Below, in pieces: positions 1-7,703 of a stretch of 52,949 nucleotides of DNA (position 1 is the first letter of the stretch; every line of letters starts with the position of its first letter). Under the pieces are notes generated by a model that worked only from the letters and a program-made list of their open reading frames with translations, did no database searches and was not told where the DNA came from. The position numbers were made by a program, and so were the translations under genes. Origin of the DNA: Polyangiaceae bacterium (GTDB lineage: Bacteria; Myxococcota_A; Polyangia; Polyangiales; Polyangiaceae); assembly GCA_046351395.1 (NCBI GenBank), contig JAXLYP010000017.1, forward strand, positions 193,508-246,456. Direction: 5' to 3'.

Positions 1-242
1 TGCGTGCGGTCCGCTCGGCGCTCGAGGAGCTCACCGATCGCGAGCAGGACATCCTCCGGGTGACGGCGCTCTACCAGCGCCACGGCGAGAAGCACCAACG
101 TTTGCCGAACGACGTCTCGAGCGATCTCGCGACGCGTTGGGGCACGAACAACGAGAACATCCGCGCGATCCGCAGCCGCGCGATGAAGAAGCTCGAGGCT
201 CGCCTCCGAGAGGTGCTGCACGACGACGGGGGGGCGCGGTGA
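1..242 (+). CDS. RNA polymerase sigma factor, C-terminal region 4 (5'-partial)
   Basis: In-frame translation from pos 3: RAVRSALEELTDREQDILRV...NIRAIRSRAMKKLEARLREV matches sigma-70 region 4 helix-turn-helix; stop TGA at 240-242 overlaps a GTG at 239 (GTGA coupling). Confidence 0.6.
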   Translation, partial: RAVRSALEELTDREQDILRVTALYQRHGEKHQRLPNDVSSDLATRWGTNNENIRAIRSRAMKKLEARLREVLHDDGGAR

Positions 243-344
243 CCGTGGAACGAAAGGACGACGAGGTGGAGGCGATCGTGAGGCGCGCCGTCGGCGGGCT
301 CCTGCCGACGACGGAGGACGAGGTCCGGCGCGCGGAAGAAGAAG

Positions 345-1415
345 GTGTCGAGTTCGATGGAGAGCTGCCCGCAGGGCTCGCGTCCTTTCGACCGCGCGCC
401 GACGCCCAGCCGGCTCGAGGAGGCGCGTCGGCGGAACCATCGAGGAGCGCCGCGCCCGCCCGCGCACCGCGGTCACGACGGCGGGCAGGGTCGCGGACGT
501 CGTCTCGCTCGAGGATCGGCGCGCCCGGCGTCCGTCGGCGGTCCTCACGCACGCGGCGTTCGGCGCGCTCTGCGGGCGGCCGCCGCCGCGGCCGTCGTGC
601 TCTTCGTCCAGCGTCCTTCCAAGGAGATCGCGGGCGCGGGCCGCGCGGACGATCGCTCCCCGGGAGCGAGCGCGCAGACACACGCCACGCCAGCGCCGAG
701 CGCCGATCCCCCTCGGATCCAGGTCCCGGCGGGGCCCGCGTGCGCATCGAGCCCGACCGAGTGCCCCTCGGGCCGGGCGTGCGTTCCGACCTCGATGGAC
801 GAGATCAGCGCGAGCCGCTATCGCCTGAGGGTCGGTGATTTCGCGCCGACCGAGATCGGGAAGGAGGCGCTCTCGCGGGGACCCATCGACGTCTGCGCGC
901 GCGTGGGCGCCTCGGAGATCGCGTGCCGCCCGGCGCGCATCGGAGAGACGAGCAGCATGGTCGTGCTGCCGATCACGTTCAGCGGCAGCGAGGGCCTCTC
1001 CGGTGTCACGATCGACGTGCGCTTCCGCGGCGCGCAGGTGCCCATCGGACAATGGTCCGGACCGCTCGGCCTGTCCGCGAAGGGCCTCTGCAACGGTCAG
1101 CTCGTCGAGCCGACGCAGCCCGGGGGAGACAAACTCGGGACCATCTCACTCTTCGCCGACGACGCGACGTACGTCGAGGTCGGTCGCGCCGCGACGAGCA
1201 CGGACGCGGAGGCCATCGGCGCCGCGTTCGACACGCCGCTGCCCCTCCGCCTGTTCGAATCGAGCCGCCTTGGACCGGAGAAGTTCGTGGTCGCGTTCGG
1301 GCCCGTCACCGTCGTGGAGGCCGAGCGGATTCGGTGGGCGGTGAACGACGGGGGCGGGCACGCGACCGTGTCGCTCGGAGCAGACTTCCTTGGGGCTCCT
1401 CGCGCGCTTCGCTGA
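345..1415 (+). CDS. membrane-anchored protein, putative anti-sigma factor (start uncertain)
   Basis: Arg-rich cytoplasmic N-terminus, one TM helix (AAAAAAVVLFV), then a plausible extracytoplasmic domain with high GC3. An alternative start is GTG at 239 in frame 2, whose product carries an FDGEL motif. A frame switch (about 360-560) would be needed to join the two. Confidence 0.45.
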   Translation: MSSSMESCPQGSRPFDRAPTPSRLEEARRRNHRGAPRPPAHRGHDGGQGRGRRLARGSARPASVGGPHARGVRRALRAAAAAAVVLFVQRPSKEIAGAGRADDRSPGASAQTHATPAPSADPPRIQVPAGPACASSPTECPSGRACVPTSMDEISASRYRLRVGDFAPTEIGKEALSRGPIDVCARVGASEIACRPARIGETSSMVVLPITFSGSEGLSGVTIDVRFRGAQVPIGQWSGPLGLSAKGLCNGQLVEPTQPGGDKLGTISLFADDATYVEVGRAATSTDAEAIGAAFDTPLPLRLFESSRLGPEKFVVAFGPVTVVEAERIRWAVNDGGGHATVSLGADFLGAPRALR

Positions 1416-1500
1416 GCTGCTTCTCAGGCCGGTTTGGGGTGGCCCGTGAGGTGTCCCATCCCGCCTTCTCGGACGCCCACGCATGGCGCTTGGCGCCGGC
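1388..1500. repeat. about 115-bp repeat, copy 1 (paired with 4207..4322, same orientation, about 85% identity)
   Basis: Direct alignment: ...gggctcctcgcgcgcttcg..gagct.ct.c.cagg....ttggggtggcccgtgaggt...cccatcccgcc.ttctcggacgcccacgcatggcgct.gg.gccgg. Confidence 0.7.
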
Positions 1501-1698
1501 CTTGCCGTTCCAAGTGAAGCGGACCTCGATGAGCCTCTCTGGCTCGCCGTGGACCACCGGATAGTAGTCGTGGAACTGGATGTCGAACACGGTGGAGACC
1601 GGCTCGGACGGTTCGTCGATCACCGTCGCATCTTCGAAGTCGGGGCGAGGGAACTCCGCGCGGTGGACGTTCGCTTCTCCAGGCGTTGCCCATCGGAC
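1424..1698 (-). pseudogene. gene remnant with frameshifted C-terminal tail homologous to the tail of the 4242..5039 methyltransferase
   Basis: High-GC3 frame encodes ...FDIQFHDYYPVVHGEPERLIEVRFTWNGKAGAKRHAWASEKAGW with no start codon upstream. A 1-nt shorter G-run than copy 2 shifts the tail (GGMGHLTGHPKPA*) into another frame. Confidence 0.35.
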
Positions 1699-1780
1699 GA
1701 GGCGCGCCCCTCCGACGTCGGCAGGTCCGCCGAGGCGTGTCGGCGCTCGGGGCCGTCCTCGCGCCCGAGGTGAGGCGAGC

Positions 1781-3994
1781 TCACAGTCGCAAGATCGAGA
1801 GGAGGTTCGCGTAGTCGTCGGTGAAGGGGCGCGCGCCGGTCGGCGCGGCCGACCAGCCGAGCGCCTCGAGCGCGGCGCGCCTTTTGGGGGCTCGCGTCGC
1901 CGCGATCCAGCGGCTCGGGAGCGCGAGATCCTCGTCCGCTGCGGACCTCGCGCAGAGGAGGGGCGGCGCGCCCAGCGCGTCCAGCGCGGCGGCGAGCGGC
2001 CCCGCGAGATCGTAGAACCGGTTCGAGATCTGCACGGCCAGCACGCCATCGGGGGCGAGGACGCGCAGCGTGTCGGTGAGCGCCTCCATCGTGAGGAGGT
2101 GCACTGGGAGCGAGTCGCTCGAGAAGGCGTCGACGACGACCAGCGCGTACCTCTCGTCCGGCTCTGCGCGGAGCGAGAGGCGCGCGTCCCCCAGGACGAT
2201 CCGCGGGCGCTCCGGCGCGTCCGACACGTACGTGAAGAGGGTCGGGTTCGTCGCGATCGTGACGACGACCGGATCGATCTCGAAGAACGTCATCCTCACG
2301 CCGGGCTGGTCGTACGCGGCGAGCGTGCCCGCGCCGAGCCCGACCACCGCGACGTCGCCGCGCGCCTCCGCGTCGAGCGCGACGCCGAACACGTCCGCGA
2401 TCGGGCTACCTGGAGCGAAGTACGCCGTCGGCCGACGGCGCTTCTCCTGGGCCGTCCACTGCGATCCGTGCACCGTCGTCCCGCTGTAGAGGGTCGCGAC
2501 CTCGCCGCCCCGGGTCCGTCGGACCTCGCTCACGCCGAAGAAGCTCCGCCCGCGGTACGCCACCCCGGTGCGCAGCCCGAACGCGCCGATGACGAGCGCC
2601 GTGGCGGTCGTCGCGACGAGGATCCACGGTCGCGTGCCGAGCAGGAGCAGCAGCCCGCCGACCACGAGCGACAACAAACCGATCTGGCGATCCCTCCCGC
2701 CGTCCCGGACGAGGATCACGGCGAGCACGCCCGCGCCGAAGACGTAGGGACCCAGGCGCCCGGCGAACTCTCCGAGGATGGATCGGAGGTCCTGCCCGCG
2801 CGCGCCCCAGGCGTCTCGGTGGAGCGCGACCGCGACGAGCGCGCCGAGGAGAAGGATGGGGTACTCCCAGATGTCGGGGAACGCGCGCGGCGCCACGAGC
2901 GCGACGAACATCGAGCCCAGCGCGCCCCCGACGGACACGACGACGTAGAACTCGGTCGCTCGCGCGGGATCGGGGCGATCCCGCGCGAGGAGCCCGTGGA
3001 GCGCCACCACGACGACGCCGAACGCGACGAGCATGATCGGCAAGAGCGCGAGTACGGGCCCGGTCGACGCGCCGTAGAGGACCCAGAGCAACGTGATCAT
3101 CGCGGGCGCCGCGACGATCGCCCAGCGGACGACGCGTCGGGTCGAGAACGCGACGATGAAGGAGCCGATGTAGAGCGCGAGCGGCACGACCCAGACGAGC
3201 GGCGCCGCCACGAGATCCGTCGACAGGAACGTGGTCACCGCGGAGAGCAATCCCGAAGGGACCGCGGAGAGGAGCAACCAGCGCGCGCGCCGTCGATGCG
3301 TGATGCGGGGGGGCTCGGCCCGGGCCTCGTCCAGTGTGGCGCGGGACCCGGTCGGCGAGAGAGCGCGCCCCCTCCACCTGGTGACCGCCGCGAGCGCGAG
3401 CGCCAAGACGAGCGCGGCGTACGCCGCGAACCACGCGTGGCGCTGCGCGCGGAGCCCGAGGCGGGGCTCGACGAGGAGAGGGTAGGCGAACAGCGCGAGC
3501 ATCGAGCCCGCGTTGCTGATCGCGTAGAGCCAATAGGGATCGCGCTCGCCCTGCGGTCCGAGCGAAGACCGATACCAAGCCGAGAGCAGCGGGGTGGTCG
3601 CGGTGAGGACGAACAACGGCAGCCCGATGACGACGACGAGCAGCCGGAGCAGCTCCAGCGCGGCGGGGAGCGACCCGATGCCGAGATCGGAGAGGCGATC
3701 CGGGACGAGGAGCGACAGCGCGAGCCCGAGCGACGCGAGCCCCATGTGCACGATCGGCCCCCAACGACCGAGCCGCGTGATCGAGAGGTGCGCGTAGACG
3801 TAGCCCGCGACGAGGCAAATCTGGAAGAAGCAGAGCGCGGTAGCCCAGACCATCGGCGCGCCGCCGAAGACCGGCAGGAGGAGCTTTCCAACGAGCGGCT
3901 CCACGCTGAACAGCAAGAACGCGGAGAGCCCGATCGACACGGCGAAGGGCGCGGTCGTGCCGAGCGTCGTGGAGCGGGGGGGCGGAAGCGGCAC
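1781..3994 (-). CDS. fused polytopic membrane domain + spermidine/spermine synthase-like (aminopropyltransferase-fold) protein
   Basis: N-terminal multi-TM region (SIGLSAFLLFSVEPLVGKLLLPVFGGAP...) followed by a spermidine-synthase-like C-terminal domain (GDVAVVGLGAGTLA...LVVVDAFSSDSLPVHLLT). GTG start at 3994 chosen just upstream of the first TM; start is uncertain. Confidence 0.65.
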   Translation of the reverse strand: MPLPPPRSTTLGTTAPFAVSIGLSAFLLFSVEPLVGKLLLPVFGGAPMVWATALCFFQICLVAGYVYAHLSITRLGRWGPIVHMGLASLGLALSLLVPDRLSDLGIGSLPAALELLRLLVVVIGLPLFVLTATTPLLSAWYRSSLGPQGERDPYWLYAISNAGSMLALFAYPLLVEPRLGLRAQRHAWFAAYAALVLALALAAVTRWRGRALSPTGSRATLDEARAEPPRITHRRRARWLLLSAVPSGLLSAVTTFLSTDLVAAPLVWVVPLALYIGSFIVAFSTRRVVRWAIVAAPAMITLLWVLYGASTGPVLALLPIMLVAFGVVVVALHGLLARDRPDPARATEFYVVVSVGGALGSMFVALVAPRAFPDIWEYPILLLGALVAVALHRDAWGARGQDLRSILGEFAGRLGPYVFGAGVLAVILVRDGGRDRQIGLLSLVVGGLLLLLGTRPWILVATTATALVIGAFGLRTGVAYRGRSFFGVSEVRRTRGGEVATLYSGTTVHGSQWTAQEKRRRPTAYFAPGSPIADVFGVALDAEARGDVAVVGLGAGTLAAYDQPGVRMTFFEIDPVVVTIATNPTLFTYVSDAPERPRIVLGDARLSLRAEPDERYALVVVDAFSSDSLPVHLLTMEALTDTLRVLAPDGVLAVQISNRFYDLAGPLAAALDALGAPPLLCARSAADEDLALPSRWIAATRAPKRRAALEALGWSAAPTGARPFTDDYANLLSILRL

Positions 3995-4206
3995 CAGGCG
4001 CCGCCATGCTATCGGGTCTCGGGGACCGGGGGCTCCTCCGCACGCTGGTACGAACGTACCTGAGCGGATCGCCGCCGCACCTGGTGGCGAATCCCGCGCT
4101 GGACCGGACCTTTTTGGACCCCGCGCGATGCGCAAGCCAATGACCGCGCAAGGATGGTTCGAATGTCCAATGAGTCCACCGAGGGGCGTGCCGCCCGGAG
4201 CGTTCT

Positions 4207-4322
4207 TGTGGGCTCCTCGCGCGCTTCGACGAGCTCCTCCCTCAGGAGGCCTTGGGGCGGCCCGTGAGGTAGAGGCCCATCCCGCCCTTCTCGGACGCCC
4301 ACGCATAGCGCTCGGTGCCGGG
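4207..4322. repeat. about 115-bp repeat, copy 2
   Basis: See copy 1. It overlaps the last ~25 codons and 3' flank of the methyltransferase gene. Confidence 0.7.
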
Positions 4323-5039
4323 GACCCCGCGCGCGATGTCCAGGAGCTCCTCGGGCGCGTACGCGCGGAGCGCGGACACCGTCCCGTCCCACGCGAAGAG
4401 GAACGGGATGAGCGGCACCAAATAGGTGAGGAGCCAGCGCGACGCGCGCACCGGACGCACGAGCGGGACGAGCGCAAACGGCAGCGTGAAGAGCACGAGC
4501 GCGTTCGGCAAGAGCGCAAACGGCGACAGCGGCGCGGGCATCTTGCGCATCATCGGGTTCGCGGCGACGTCGAAGAACGCGACGTGCGCGCCGCTCGCGA
4601 CCGCATCCGCGAGGAGCGAATGGATCGCCTCGGGCGGGAAGTGGTGGAGCGCCCCGAACATGGTCCGCAAACCTCGGAGATCGGAGGGGACGTGCATCGC
4701 GTCGACCGGCTCGCCGTGCACCGCCACGTTCGCGAGTCCCCGCGTCCGCCCGATGGTCGCCTCATTGGGGTGCCGATCGGTCAGCAGGAACCGCACGTCC
4801 GTCCGCCCTCGCGCCGCGAGCGCCCTCGCCATGAAGAGCGCCCCTCCGCCGCCGCCGGAGCAGAGGTCGACGACCTGCTGCCCGCCGCTCGCGTCGATCG
4901 CGCGCTCGAGGACGTCGACGAGCGGCTGGTAGAACTTCACCAGCCCGAAGAAGGTATCCAAGAGGTCCGTCCCGCCGTCTCGAATCGCGCCCGGCATCCA
5001 GTCGAGATCCTCGAGCTCCACGAAGTGCACGCGTCTCAT
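4242..5039 (-). CDS. class I SAM-dependent methyltransferase with C-terminal hydrophobic segment
   Basis: Rossmann motif VVDLCSGGGGGALFMARAL; ATG at 5039 (MRRVHFVELEDLDW); ends ...ERYAWASEKGGMGLYLTGRPKAS*. Confidence 0.65.
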   Translation of the reverse strand: MRRVHFVELEDLDWMPGAIRDGGTDLLDTFFGLVKFYQPLVDVLERAIDASGGQQVVDLCSGGGGGALFMARALAARGRTDVRFLLTDRHPNEATIGRTRGLANVAVHGEPVDAMHVPSDLRGLRTMFGALHHFPPEAIHSLLADAVASGAHVAFFDVAANPMMRKMPAPLSPFALLPNALVLFTLPFALVPLVRPVRASRWLLTYLVPLIPFLFAWDGTVSALRAYAPEELLDIARGVPGTERYAWASEKGGMGLYLTGRPKAS

Positions 5040-5154
5040 GGCCCGGGAGGATAGGGTCGTTCCTGCGCCGGAGAAGCGCGGCAGATCGCCGCGCCGGTGC
5101 GCTCTTGTCAGCCTCGGCCGCCCCGGCCGTCGTCTCCCCGCGAGGAGGTCAGCC

Positions 5155-5511
5155 ATGTCGGCTGCACGAAGGAGCTCGCTCGCTGCGGCGCTCACGCTCG
5201 CCGTGGTCCACGCGAACGAGGCGAACGCCGAGGAGCCGTTCCCGATCATTTCGCTCCGCGACGCGACGGTCGGCGTCGGTTCGACGGGAGCGCCCGCAGG
5301 GTGGATCGCGCTGCCGACGCTCGCGCTCTCGCCCTCGGGCGGGTCGAGCCTGCGCCCCGTTCTCGAGATCGACGCGATCGACGTCCAGCGCGGCGCCGTG
5401 GTCCCGATCCTTCGCCTCGAGCTGAAGCTCCCCGTCGCGGACTTCGTGCTCGACTGGAGCCCCGACCCCGCCCTCGGGACTCACGCCCGCCTCCGCGTGT
5501 CCCTGAATTGA
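5155..5511 (+). CDS. small secreted hypothetical protein
   Basis: GAGGAGG 5 nt upstream of ATG; signal peptide MSAARRSSLAAALTLAVVHANEANA. Confidence 0.5.
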   Translation: MSAARRSSLAAALTLAVVHANEANAEEPFPIISLRDATVGVGSTGAPAGWIALPTLALSPSGGSSLRPVLEIDAIDVQRGAVVPILRLELKLPVADFVLDWSPDPALGTHARLRVSLN

Positions 5512-5647
5512 CCGCTCGCCGCTCCGCCGCGCTGAATTTCGCGCCCGCCCCTCGGAGCGTCGTTCGCAAACCTCGGAATTTCGACCTCCCGACCAGCACG
5601 AAAGCCGCGAGAGGGATTTCATTCCGAGCTCGTCACAACGCGCACCG

Positions 5648-6859
5648 ATGCGACTCCGAAGCGCGCTCCTCCCCGCCTTGGGTGTATTGTCTGTCGCGTG
5701 TGGGGGCGGCGCCTCACCTCGTGTGCAGGAGCCGAAGCCGACTGGGCAGTGGCGGGGATCATCGACTGGGCAGTGGACGGGATCCCCGACCGGTGTGCCG
5801 TGGGGTGGCTCCATCGTCGCGGGCGGCCTTGCGATCCTGCGGAGCGGCGCGTGTCCGCTCACGGAGATCGCGCCGGGGCAGTGGGCCCAAGCGGCGTGCG
5901 CGCCCATCGTCCAGTTCAAGAACGCGCTGCCCTATCGGGCGCCACCTTTCGTGGCGAGCGCGCTCCCCGCCTATGTAGACCACCGCGCCTCGGGGCTCGA
6001 GGGCCCCGTGAAGAACCAACAGAACGTGGGCGCGTGCGGCGCCTTCTCCGTCACGACCGCGATGGAGAACGCGCTCCGCAAGCAAGGCCGGCAGGACGTC
6101 CTCTCGGCGCTCCATTACTACGTGAAGTACGGCACGGTCGCCGGCACCGGCGAGAACGGCGACGCGATCACCACGGACGCCGTCTGGCCGTACGACCCCG
6201 TGAAGGCATGCCTCTTGTCGCCCGACGAGGGCGGGGACACGTGCGATCAGGACTTCGGCGTCGTGCGGGGCGGCGGTCGCGGCGATCCGCGGTTGCGCGC
6301 CGAGCAGGCGAACGCAGACAGTCGCGGGCTCGTGCGGCTCGACCGCGCGTGGAGCATCGATCCCCGGGACGTAGACGCCATCGCGGCGATCCTCGCCGCC
6401 GGCGACGACGTCGACGCGACCTTCGCGTTCGATCGGGATGCGTGGAGCTACCGGGGGATCCAGAGCGGCGTCTTCAGCCACTACCAGGGCCCCAAGGACT
6501 ATGGTCATGGCGTCGTCCTCGCGGGGTATCGCTGGGTGAACGGAGAGCGCCAGTTCCTCATCCACAACAGCTGGGGCGCCGACTGGGCGGAGAGCGGCTA
6601 TGCGTGGATGGCGGAGAGCGACGTCCGCGCGAACCTTTGCTCGGCCTACAAGATCGATCTCGCCGAAGCGGGGACGCCGCGCCGGCCCGAGGAGACGGCG
6701 CACTATTGTCCGGGCGGGCTCCCTCCCATCGGCAACCAATGTATCCCCCTCCCGCAAGCCTCGACCGCGTGTCCGCCGGGCACGATCGGCCTTCCGGGTC
6801 TTTGTCTGCCCACCGGGGGCATCAATCCCCTCGGAGACCTCGCGCCAGGTGCGCCGTGA
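5648..6859 (+). CDS. papain-family (C1) cysteine peptidase lipoprotein
   Basis: Lipobox LSVAC; QNVGACGAFS (papain Q...C motif), YGHGVVLAGY and HNSWGADWAESGYAWM (His/Asn block). Confidence 0.75.
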   Translation: MRLRSALLPALGVLSVACGGGASPRVQEPKPTGQWRGSSTGQWTGSPTGVPWGGSIVAGGLAILRSGACPLTEIAPGQWAQAACAPIVQFKNALPYRAPPFVASALPAYVDHRASGLEGPVKNQQNVGACGAFSVTTAMENALRKQGRQDVLSALHYYVKYGTVAGTGENGDAITTDAVWPYDPVKACLLSPDEGGDTCDQDFGVVRGGGRGDPRLRAEQANADSRGLVRLDRAWSIDPRDVDAIAAILAAGDDVDATFAFDRDAWSYRGIQSGVFSHYQGPKDYGHGVVLAGYRWVNGERQFLIHNSWGADWAESGYAWMAESDVRANLCSAYKIDLAEAGTPRRPEETAHYCPGGLPPIGNQCIPLPQASTACPPGTIGLPGLCLPTGGINPLGDLAPGAP

Positions 6860-7703
6860 GCTCGGTCGCGACGCGCGTGTGGAGCTCGAGCACGGTGAAC
6901 CAATCGATGAGCTCGATGCGGAGCGCGCTCACGGCCGACGCGGCCCGCGCCGTGTGCGCGCGGGGGACCTCCGCGAGCGCATCGAGGAACCCCATGTCCG
7001 TCCCCGCTCCGACGGTCGCGCGCTCGCCGCGCGCGGTCTCGCACTCGACGAGCCCCGCGGTGACGCGGATCCAGTGGTTCGCGACATCTCCCGCGCTCCA
7101 GAGGACGTCGCCTCGCTGAAACCGCACGTCCGTGGACGCGCTCGCGATCTCCGCGAGGCCCTCCACGTTCGCGCGCGCGATGGGCGATCTCCGGAGCTGG
7201 ATGACCCGCTCCACGACCGTCAGCTCCTCGTCCCGAAACGTGCCGTGCTCCGGCGGATCGGAGCGATTGGGCAATGGCCCGCGCTCCGCGAGGAGGTCCC
7301 GCGCGAGGCCCCGCAGCACGAAGCGCTGGAGCGCGAAATCCCGTTGGAGCGCGATCCGGACCGCGTCTCCGGGGATCTCGAGCGCGAGCGTCCGTGCCTC
7401 CGTCGTCGCGCTCAGGTGATCGCGCTCCGTGAGGAGCGCGGTGAACCCGAGCGCGCGCTGGCTCTCCACGCGGCCGACCAGGGTGCCTTCGTGCTCCACG
7501 CGCACGCTCCCCTCGAGCACGTAGAGCACGGACGTGATCGGATCGGTCGCGCGCCAGATCACCGCGCGCGGCCGAAACCGCCGGTAGCGGGAGCGCTCCG
7601 CCATGAGCAGGAGAGTGTCCACGCTGACCGATCGAAGATCGGGCATCGAGCCGAGGAGGCGGGCGCGCGCCTCGACGCTCGCGAGCTCGGGCTCAGCTTG
7701 CAT
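6822..7703 (-). CDS. tandem cyclic-nucleotide-binding (CAP effector) domain protein
   Basis: Two cNMP-binding-like domains (RYRRFRPRAVIWRATDPITSVLYVLEGSVRVE...). Start overlaps the stop of the upstream TLC gene by 11 nt. Confidence 0.65.
   Translation of the reverse strand: MQAEPELASVEARARLLGSMPDLRSVSVDTLLLMAERSRYRRFRPRAVIWRATDPITSVLYVLEGSVRVEHEGTLVGRVESQRALGFTALLTERDHLSATTEARTLALEIPGDAVRIALQRDFALQRFVLRGLARDLLAERGPLPNRSDPPEHGTFRDEELTVVERVIQLRRSPIARANVEGLAEIASASTDVRFQRGDVLWSAGDVANHWIRVTAGLVECETARGERATVGAGTDMGFLDALAEVPRAHTARAASAVSALRIELIDWFTVLELHTRVATELTAHLARGLRGD

Follow-up and report, generated by a model that had tools for sequence, protein, structure and literature searches.

Transposons leave target-site duplications of 2-15 bp, and integrative islands are typically foreign DNA enclosed by direct repeats that include a target gene's 3' end. 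Another arrangement is described for transposed non-transposon genes of Arabidopsis (Woodhouse et al. 2010, PMC2869330), where the flanking direct repeats are genic and homologous to a single-copy target in the sister species. We analyzed a direct repeat in a window of 52,949 nucleotides (the whole stretch of DNA under study) from a metagenome-assembled genome (MAG) of a Polyangiaceae bacterium. The repeat is very probably an insertion scar with a long target duplication, in which the junction between a methyltransferase gene and a convergent gene was duplicated on both sides of a 2.7-kb insert. The scar is an ordinary rearrangement and not a mobile protein tail or a terminator module.

The duplicated junction and its two copies

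Local alignment and blastn delimited the repeat to two copies of ~133 bp (Table 1), confirming the repeat first noted at 1388-1500 and 4207-4322 and taking it slightly further on the low-coordinate side. Their alignment spans 138 columns with 4 gaps at 80.4% identity (E 5.6e-29 in the search of the 53-kb window), and the longest exact run in common is 21 nt. Without gaps, the copies agree at 88% in the methyltransferase-tail half and at 81% in the half past the stop codon, values that come from small counts of 55-76 nt per half. A blastn search of the 53-kb window yielded no third copy, the next best match reaching E 0.006-0.08 over ~20 nt. Beyond 1499 and 4321 the likeness of the two sites is at chance level, with 19% of genomic controls scoring as high.

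Copy 2 contains the last ~25 methyltransferase codons (...PGTERYAWASEKGGMGLYLTGRPKAS*) together with 55 nt past the stop codon. The C-terminus of this methyltransferase is conserved family-wide, being shared by >1000 homologs, and the gene has its native 3' end in copy 2. The best 120 of 1080 matches were methyltransferases of 252-297 aa, aligned over 94-100% of the query, and no protein of another family among those 120 carried the YAWASEKGGMG tail. A degenerate DNA pattern for the tail, scanned against JGI metagenomes, returned a single further locus, an orthologous methyltransferase end. The mobile 3' cassette suggested in the preliminary description is not supported.

In copy 1, the tail reads ...AGAKRHAWASEK up to a 1-nt deletion and then continues as GGMGHLTGHPKPA* in a different frame. 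The deletion lies in a C-run at plus-strand positions 1464-1465, agreeing with the G-run difference on the minus strand to which the frameshift had been attributed, and a separate 3-nt deletion is also present. A family HMM of 120 members matched copy 1 at profile positions 242-265 only, corresponding to the last ~23 codons. We considered copy 1 as the end of a decayed second methyltransferase and rejected this candidate, since the profile matches those codons only and likeness beyond 1499 is at chance level. The earlier view that the repeat is not ordinary paralogy was right insofar as a second methyltransferase gene never stood here. What had been described as an unrelated gene body 5' of the copy 1 tail on the minus strand is instead a gene relic of 60 codons.

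The functional 3' end of the convergent gene sits in copy 1, and the plus-strand ORF at 345-1415 ends inside this copy, as originally reported. The blastn alignment of this side with the orthologous locus L001 is unbroken from window position 1 to 1507. In tblastn with the 385-aa L001 ortholog, frames 2, 1 and 3 matched in turn (254-433, 457-573 and 612-1412), requiring two frame changes, at ~433-457 and 574-612; no family was assigned to the gene in Pfam or NCBIfam. Its start is overlapped by the stop of the sigma-70-family gene, whose protein is 95-97% identical to that of the sigma gene in the same position of L001-L004.

In each copy one gene end still works while the other half is redundant and decaying. 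The indels and most of the substitutions fall in the redundant halves, which evolve as pseudogenes: the tail in copy 1 and the post-stop part in copy 2. On the tail, divergence derived from pairwise identities was roughly 11% on the copy 1 branch versus ~1% on the copy 2 branch. In either half, the nearest sequence to copy 1 is copy 2, at 88% versus 82% to L001 in the tail and 81% versus 62-69% in the post-stop part. Because the copies are closer to each other than either is to the nearest relative, the duplication arose inside the window lineage. Gene conversion between the copies could give a duplication too young an appearance.

Table 1. Features around the duplicated junction (window coordinates).
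Feature	Position	Strand	Basis or content
Sigma-70-family gene, 3' part (context only)	3-242	+	weak Pfam Sigma70_r4 match
Convergent gene, putative anti-sigma-like membrane protein (named by position only)	239-1415	+	tblastn with 385-aa L001 ortholog; listed ORF 345-1415
Copy 1 of duplicated junction	1367-1499		live 3' end of plus-strand gene (1367-1415) and dead methyltransferase tail (1424-1499, minus)
Decaying methyltransferase-tail fragment, last ~25 codons	1424-1499	-	1-nt and 3-nt deletions; no methyltransferase body upstream
Inner edge of insert, 40 nt of uncertain origin	1500-1539		chance-level likeness to methyltransferase sequence beyond 4321; weak alignment to P0243 family
60-codon gene relic, rare Polyangiaceae protein family	1540-1719	-	best match residues 468-524 of 683-aa P0243
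Intact fused MFS/spermidine-synthase-like gene, main insert cargo	1781-3994	-	NCBIfam NF037959, E 2.5e-13, above cutoff
Non-coding stretch upstream of spermidine-synthase-like gene	3995-4186		no homology to L001-L007; Rfam empty here
Copy 2 of duplicated junction	4187-4321		dead remnant of plus-strand gene 3' end (4187-4241) and live methyltransferase tail (4242-4321, minus)
Class I SAM-dependent methyltransferase, ~265 aa (P0001, U0414_27300)	4242-5042	-	100% match to NCBI protein of Polyangiaceae MAG; 1080 homologs

The junction in relatives and the content of the insert

Five relatives with a methyltransferase 77-87% identical to that of the window (L001-L004 and L090) have one junction each. 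In all five, the methyltransferase gene meets, stop to stop, a convergent gene located downstream of a sigma-70-family gene; the stop codons are 0-22 nt apart and no gene lies between them. Window segments 1-1507 and 4247-5493 both align to L001, overlapping on L001 1324-1406, and the intervening 1508-4246 had no counterpart at the junction of the relatives. A spermidine-synthase-like gene was near the methyltransferase in 0 of 80 further genome loci of the family, from a genome-collection scan that covered species representatives, did not return the window's own genome and gave a best match 61-64% identical. The window and L001 are mutual nearest neighbors nested among relatives without the insert, and the insert is therefore a lineage-specific gain, not an ancestral state. 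It is established that the junction is single in the relatives and duplicated in the window, what the insert contains, in which direction the change went, and that the copies decayed asymmetrically.

Among 76 related loci tested, only L063 had a clear second junction copy on the same strand; shorter repeat matches of 26-79 nt were present in L014, L030 and L066. At the methyltransferase 3' junction of L063, a Chlorobiota MAG, positions 6727-6829 are repeated at 7284-7393 around an insert of ~455 nt. This unrelated second example hints that such events recur.

The insert (1500-4186) consists mainly of an intact fused MFS/spermidine-synthase-like gene and the relic, and its GC content of 0.67-0.73 in every segment equals that of the host. 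The start of the spermidine-synthase-like gene was set after the gene call in L088. The gene has a GC3 of 0.93 and gave single-HSP alignments over 97-99% of homologs at 64-71% identity; these closest homologs occupy other contexts, and their flanks are absent from the 53-kb window. As regards a donor site, the 53-kb window contained neither a further spermidine-synthase-like gene nor a full-length P0243-like gene. P0243 (U0414_20070) is a full-length paralog of the relic family elsewhere in the same MAG, and its family carries a metalloprotease-like HExxHxxGxxH motif. The relic matched it with E 1.1e-4 in phmmer (1.84 billion representatives), 9e-13 in BLASTP and 3e-11 in tblastn, and codon-position GC over 1501-1650 was coding-like (0.64/0.36/0.86). 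In its correct reading frame the relic fragment matched no Pfam family; cadherin and repeat-protein matches (P0241, P0242 and P0244) were discarded as repetitive or low-complexity. Such a mosaic, with an intact gene beside a 60-codon relic, calls for more than one event or for subsequent deletions. For annotation purposes, a gene call at 1424-1719 is to be avoided; two pseudogene fragments are fused there.

Origin of the duplicated junction

Ancestrally, the minus-strand methyltransferase gene very probably met, stop to stop, the plus-strand gene downstream of the sigma-70-family gene. After the split from the nearest sampled relative, ~2.7 kb of host-like DNA, comprising the fused MFS/spermidine-synthase-like gene and what is now the second-gene relic, very probably entered this junction, and a target of ~133 bp spanning both stop codons ended up on both sides of the insert, so that both flanking genes kept a complete 3' end. 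Decay of the redundant halves has followed, affecting the methyltransferase tail of copy 1 and, in copy 2, the end of the plus-strand gene. For the molecular route, we favor a single repair or replication step, which from the architecture may have been template switching or an insertion into breaks offset by ~130 nt. Two steps would explain the data equally well, if a small tandem duplication came first and the DNA was then inserted between its two copies. Any microhomology at the breakpoints would be hidden because the copies have diverged. At ~133 bp, the scar far exceeds the target duplication made by a transposase.

Of the three options raised in the preliminary description, the recombination scar was essentially right, in the form of a duplicated junction that flanks an insertion, and the mobile cassette and the terminator module are not supported. 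The opposing view given there, that the unit occurs at these two places only and that copy 1 duplicates just part of the methyltransferase gene, also holds, with two copies in the 53-kb window; the duplication additionally takes in the 3' end of the convergent gene.

The alternative that survives best is Campbell-type (insertion-duplication) integration, in which a circle bearing a copy of the junction and the cargo undergoes a single homologous crossover at the chromosomal junction, doubling the homologous segment around the cargo. A single crossover yields exactly this architecture, an insert bounded by direct repeats whose homolog at the orthologous site is single-copy, and the host-like composition agrees with a donor belonging to the same species or a related one. 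The same pattern in transposed plant genes is attributed to circle insertion (PMC2869330). However, the proposal requires a prior molecule that already joined the cargo to the junction, which merely moves the problem one step back, and no such donor arrangement was present in any relative examined. The donor would also have to come from the same lineage, because both copies share lineage-specific states. We consider this route unlikely.

It is much less probable still that the repeats are the attL and attR of an eroded integrative element, a recombinase-mediated island that integrated at the methyltransferase 3' end, supplied a replacement gene end and later lost its integrase and most of its cargo. 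Direct repeats that include a gene 3' end flank the insert, as is typical of integrative islands, and the relic at 1540-1719 points to loss or truncation of DNA inside the insert. Against this, no tyrosine or serine recombinase or integrase was found between the repeats, where the sole intact gene is spermidine-synthase-like and the relic comes from a protein family bearing a metalloprotease-like motif. The repeat covers the ends of both convergent genes instead of a core in one target gene, both copies hold the window lineage's own fast-evolving post-stop sequence, and the insert is absent at the junction in every other genome examined, with no such element at this target among the methyltransferase loci.

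A chimeric join in the assembly that mimics a duplication was considered, given that the source is a MAG and that the two apparent frameshifts in the neighboring plus-strand gene might be consensus errors. Two independent Logan assemblies from other sequencing runs are nevertheless 100% identical to the window over 3250-5871 and 4093-5130, through copy 2 and its junction into the insert. Copies of 133 bp that are 80-88% identical, with no exact shared run beyond 21 nt, would not mislead an assembler, and the divergence pattern is biological; an artifact is highly implausible. The junction of copy 1 with the insert at 1499/1500 is covered by the present assembly alone. Look-ups of the exact products of 1781-3994 (minus) and 345-1415 (plus) for independent contigs returned no record, nor did that of P0243, made for context.

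We found 0 terminator-like sites, folding energies on both strands that were no better than those of shuffles (z -0.70 to +0.60), and no credible Rfam match, the sole match at E<=1 being a below-threshold snoRNA at 3599-3650, outside both copies. An RNA or terminator module was rejected on these negative results, which speak against the conserved terminator/targeting module proposed earlier. A transposon was likewise rejected: no transposase lies between the repeats, terminal inverted repeats at the insert ends scored 6.0 versus a shuffle mean of 7.0, short direct repeats were not found there either, and the duplication is 133 bp long. A mobile or shared C-terminal module, or a terminator or RNA module, on unrelated genes would account for a peptide tail and downstream sequence common to two sites, but it is already contradicted and next to impossible, as the tail is native to one family whose best-scoring homologs were covered over nearly full length, copy 1 has a pseudogene relic and no methyltransferase body beside its tail, only two copies occur in 53 kb with one orthologous site in the metagenome scan, and no terminator, fold signal or credible Rfam match was found. 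The tail common to both sites carries no message on protein targeting or termination.

Comparison with known systems

The scar matters little beyond annotation. It is a well-polarized example of a gene inserted between abutting convergent genes, with both gene ends intact and the redundant junction halves decaying. If surveys found many long-duplication scars, these might serve as markers to date and orient gene relocations in large myxobacterial genomes. That bacteria have an uncharacterized, recombinase-independent form of gene relocation that duplicates >100 bp of target is a very doubtful proposition; if true, ordinary genes could land between closely spaced genes, convergent or adjacent, without damage to either.

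Like a transposon target-site duplication, the scar has target sequence doubled on either side of inserted DNA, but it is 133 bp long, lacks a transposase and has terminal inverted repeats no better than shuffled sequence. As with the attL/attR of islands that target gene 3' ends, the repeats hold a gene 3' end and the displaced end survives in fragmentary form across the insert; unlike them, the locus has no recombinase, two convergent gene ends are covered, both copies are host-derived, and the insert is 2.7 kb in length and was not seen at the junction elsewhere. A partial gene duplication or 3' pseudogene fragment resembles copy 1, with its non-functional, frameshifted last ~25 methyltransferase codons, whereas the unit duplicated here is a junction that includes the 3' end of the neighbor and is tied to an insertion, not a stand-alone segment. 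In Campbell-type products, too, an insert lies between direct repeats of a target segment present once at the orthologous site, and both flanking genes can stay intact; here there is no known circular donor, vector or homologous donor locus, and the mechanism is inferred from architecture only. The transposed genes of Arabidopsis (PMC2869330) are eukaryotic with a proposed origin of tandem arrays, whereas we describe one bacterial case and a possible second in L063; the two have in common a relocated ordinary gene between genic direct repeats.

A duplicated gene junction around a lineage-specific insert

Local alignment and blastn placed the repeat as two direct copies on either side of the insert, with 80.4% identity over 138 columns and four gaps (E 5.6e-29 in the 53-kb window, G+C 70%). 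The longest exact runs common to both copies were 21 and 19 nt, and blastn found no third copy in the 53-kb window. The preliminary description of the repeat was accurate, with coordinates slightly short of those obtained here. Copy 2 spans the final ~25 codons of the methyltransferase gene, its stop codon and the 55 nt that follow. The tail in copy 1 reads ...AGAKRHAWASEK, meets a 1-nt deletion in a C-run (1464-1465) and continues in another frame as GGMGHLTGHPKPA to a stop codon; copy 1 additionally carries a 3-nt deletion. The end of the plus-strand ORF at 345-1415 falls within copy 1.

Features of the repeat and the insert
Feature	Position	Strand	Observation
Repeat copy 1	1367-1499		
Insert between copies	1500-4186		
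Relic of a P0243 paralog	1540-1719	-	60 codons
Fused MFS/spermidine-synthase-like gene	1781-3994	-	intact; NCBIfam NF037959, E 2.5e-13, above cutoff
14-nt palindrome	4047-4060		
Repeat copy 2	4187-4321		
Methyltransferase gene	4242-5042	-	100% identical to NCBI protein U0414_27300
Plus-strand gene	239-1415	+	frame shifts near 433-457 and 574-612

The four methyltransferases closest to that of the window (77-87% identical) are encoded on contigs L001-L004, where the gene immediately next to it is convergent (365-393 aa) and the one beyond belongs to the sigma-70 family; the stop codons of the two convergent genes are 0-22 nt apart. The same arrangement was found in L090, a fifth relative obtained from a metagenome pattern scan. 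By blastn, window 1-1507 aligned with L001 2804-1324 and window 4247-5493 with L001 1406-153; the two alignments overlap, so that a single L001 segment (1324-1406) matches both window copies. Window 1508-4246 had no blastn counterpart at the L001 junction. In a multiple alignment with the relatives, copy 1 kept its homology on the side of the plus-strand gene and lost it at ~1499 on the methyltransferase side, and copy 2 kept it on the methyltransferase side and lost it at ~4187 on the other. These opposite ends identify the repeated unit as the junction of two convergent genes, which explains the earlier remark that the same repeat also ends the gene at 345..1415. The architecture is that of a ~133-bp target duplication around a lineage-specific 2.7-kb insert, and both flanking genes have complete 3' ends.

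The plus-strand gene, which follows the sigma-70-family gene in the window, matched its 385-aa L001 ortholog in three successive frames, so either it is a pseudogene or the MAG consensus contains two indel errors there. Of the two shifts, the second falls in a G/C-rich run just before a predicted membrane helix (AAAAAAVVLFV).

Content of the insert

The chief content of the insert is the spermidine-synthase-like gene, which has a GC3 of 0.93 and aligned to its homologs in one piece. The nearest homologs are only 64-71% identical and stand in other contexts: contig L005 has its homolog behind AddAB-like genes, in an AddAB-like/amine-oxidase neighbourhood, and L006 and L007 have theirs behind an acyltransferase gene, in an acyltransferase/DUF218 neighbourhood. 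Both neighbourhoods are candidates for the ancestral site of the gene. L005 and L006 share their samples with the relatives L003 and L004. No spermidine-synthase-like gene was seen near the methyltransferase at 80 other genome loci of its family. In the window, the spermidine-synthase-like gene follows the methyltransferase on the same strand at a distance of 247 nt, and no terminator is predicted in that interval, suggesting that co-transcription of the two genes is possible.

The window's own spermidine-synthase-like protein was not in the protein collection, where its best match was 71% identical; two other proteins of this MAG, the methyltransferase and P0243, were found there at 100%. Since the gene seems intact in the window, it may be unannotated or pseudogene-flagged in the deposited record. 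About 55 nt upstream of its start, in a non-coding region of the insert, the palindrome GGTACGAACGTACC could be an operator or a chance occurrence.

Between this gene and copy 1, a minus-strand frame has a coding-like composition (position-wise GC 0.64/0.36/0.86 at 1501-1650). Among 1.84 billion representative proteins, the only credible match for the stretch was P0243 (E 1.1e-4), a 683-aa protein (U0414_20070) encoded on another contig of the same MAG. Direct comparison (BLASTP E 9e-13, tblastn E 3e-11) aligned window 1719-1540 with P0243 residues 468-524. The P0243 family forms only six clusters among 5.8 billion proteins, with members of 536-707 aa from Polyangiaceae/Sorangium and metagenomes; no Pfam domain was found in the family, and three of the six members carry HExxHxxGxxH, a metalloprotease-like motif, near the C-terminus. 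P0243 resembles the stretch far more than the other members do, and 1540-1719 is thus a relic of a paralog of the P0243 gene. The 'upstream gene fragment' described earlier is this relic fused to the dead methyltransferase tail. The ORFs running through copy 1 are not credible genes, since 1424-1693(-) has a non-coding codon signature and 1306-2049(-) overlaps neighbouring genes.

The composition of the insert is host-like, and its mosaic content points to a larger original insert that deletions later shortened, or to an event involving several segments. Terminal inverted repeats in it did not exceed shuffled controls. Erosion of an integrative island is an unlikely origin because the insert harbors no recombinase or transposase, the repeat spans the ends of both genes, and the sequence in both copies is that of the host lineage itself.

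Age of the duplication and nature of the repeat

Judged by methyltransferase identity (87%), the window and L001 are each nearest to the other, L002 comes next, and L003 and L004 fall outside. All four relatives are without the insert, making its gain in the window lineage the parsimonious reading. In the methyltransferase tail half, the copies were 88% identical to each other, and copy 1 and copy 2 were 82% and 92% identical to L001; in the half beyond the stop, the corresponding values were 81%, 69% and 62%. Each copy thus has the other as its nearest relative, so the duplication is younger than the split from L001. When the distances were split over a three-taxon tree, the copy 1 and copy 2 branches were about 11% and about 1% in the tail half and about 6% and about 13% beyond the stop, rough values that are indicative only, with just 55-76 positions per half. 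On the same indicative footing, the redundant copy holds most of the change and the indels in each half, as would be expected were half of each copy a pseudogene.

The ~265-aa methyltransferase, whose identity to U0414_27300 matches the window to the Polyangiaceae MAG, has 1080 detectable homologs, and the family ranges over Myxococcota, Acidobacteriota, Bacteroidota, Chloroflexota and other phyla. The best 120 of the 1080 are 252-297 aa long, align over 94-100% of the query and all carry the C-terminal pattern Y-x-W-...-G-x-x-L-x-L-x-G-x-P; in a 25-sequence alignment, Y246, W248, G254, L257, G261 and P263 show little or no variation. Because the homolog C-termini follow one conserved pattern, the tail is native to a single protein family and is not a portable module. 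Pfam has no model for the family and NCBIfam no meaningful one; this class I SAM methyltransferase family (window gene and loci L008-L087) has conserved DLCSGGGG and ALHHF motifs.

A decayed second methyltransferase at copy 1 was rejected, as the family profile matches only ~23 codons there and similarity past 1499 is at chance level. An assembly artefact is unlikely, above all at copy 2: two independent Logan assemblies match the window at 100% identity over 3250-5871 and 4093-5130, covering copy 2 and the beginning of the insert; the copy 1 join is seen in the MAG assembly. For a terminator or structured RNA the results were negative, with zero terminator-like sites, folding energies of both copies on both strands within shuffles (z -0.70 to +0.60), and, in Rfam at E<=1 over 1-6000, a single below-threshold snoRNA match at 3599-3650, outside both copies. 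Of the three options first offered, the mobile cassette and the terminator module find no support and 'recombination scar' was right. The feature is real and its nature ordinary, a rearrangement scar.

Similar scars and routes of formation

A scan of 76 related loci for junction duplications gave one analogous case, L063 (a Chlorobiota MAG, 38.5% GC), suggesting that such scars are not rare; this locus is the sole hint of anything more general, and novelty is limited to the present instance. The L063 repeat (6727-6829 and 7284-7393, 76% over 110 nt) surrounds a ~455-nt insert. It takes in the methyltransferase tail and the intergenic spacer and ends ~19 codons into the downstream gene; in the first copy, this gene start is cut off by stop codons. 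The insert there contains a GC-rich hairpin-like sequence at about 6985-7070, and Rfam gave no credible match in L063, only a below-threshold miRNA match (6835-6868, E 0.58). A Polyangiales MAG locus (L014) shows, at 7212-7317, several short matches in inverted orientation (26-79 nt, 75-96% identical) to the sequence that immediately follows the methyltransferase stop; these may be a palindromic intergenic repeat.

As to the route of formation, we infer several candidates for the scar in the window. The DNA may have entered at breaks staggered by ~130 nt that were then filled in; replication may have switched template; or a small tandem duplication may have come first, with the insert landing between its two copies. 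Campbell-type integration of a circle carrying a copy of the junction is another candidate; it requires a donor with cargo and junction already joined, and would yield exactly the observed pattern. This route has been put forward for transposed plant genes, in which the flanking repeats match a single-copy target in the sister species (PMC2869330).
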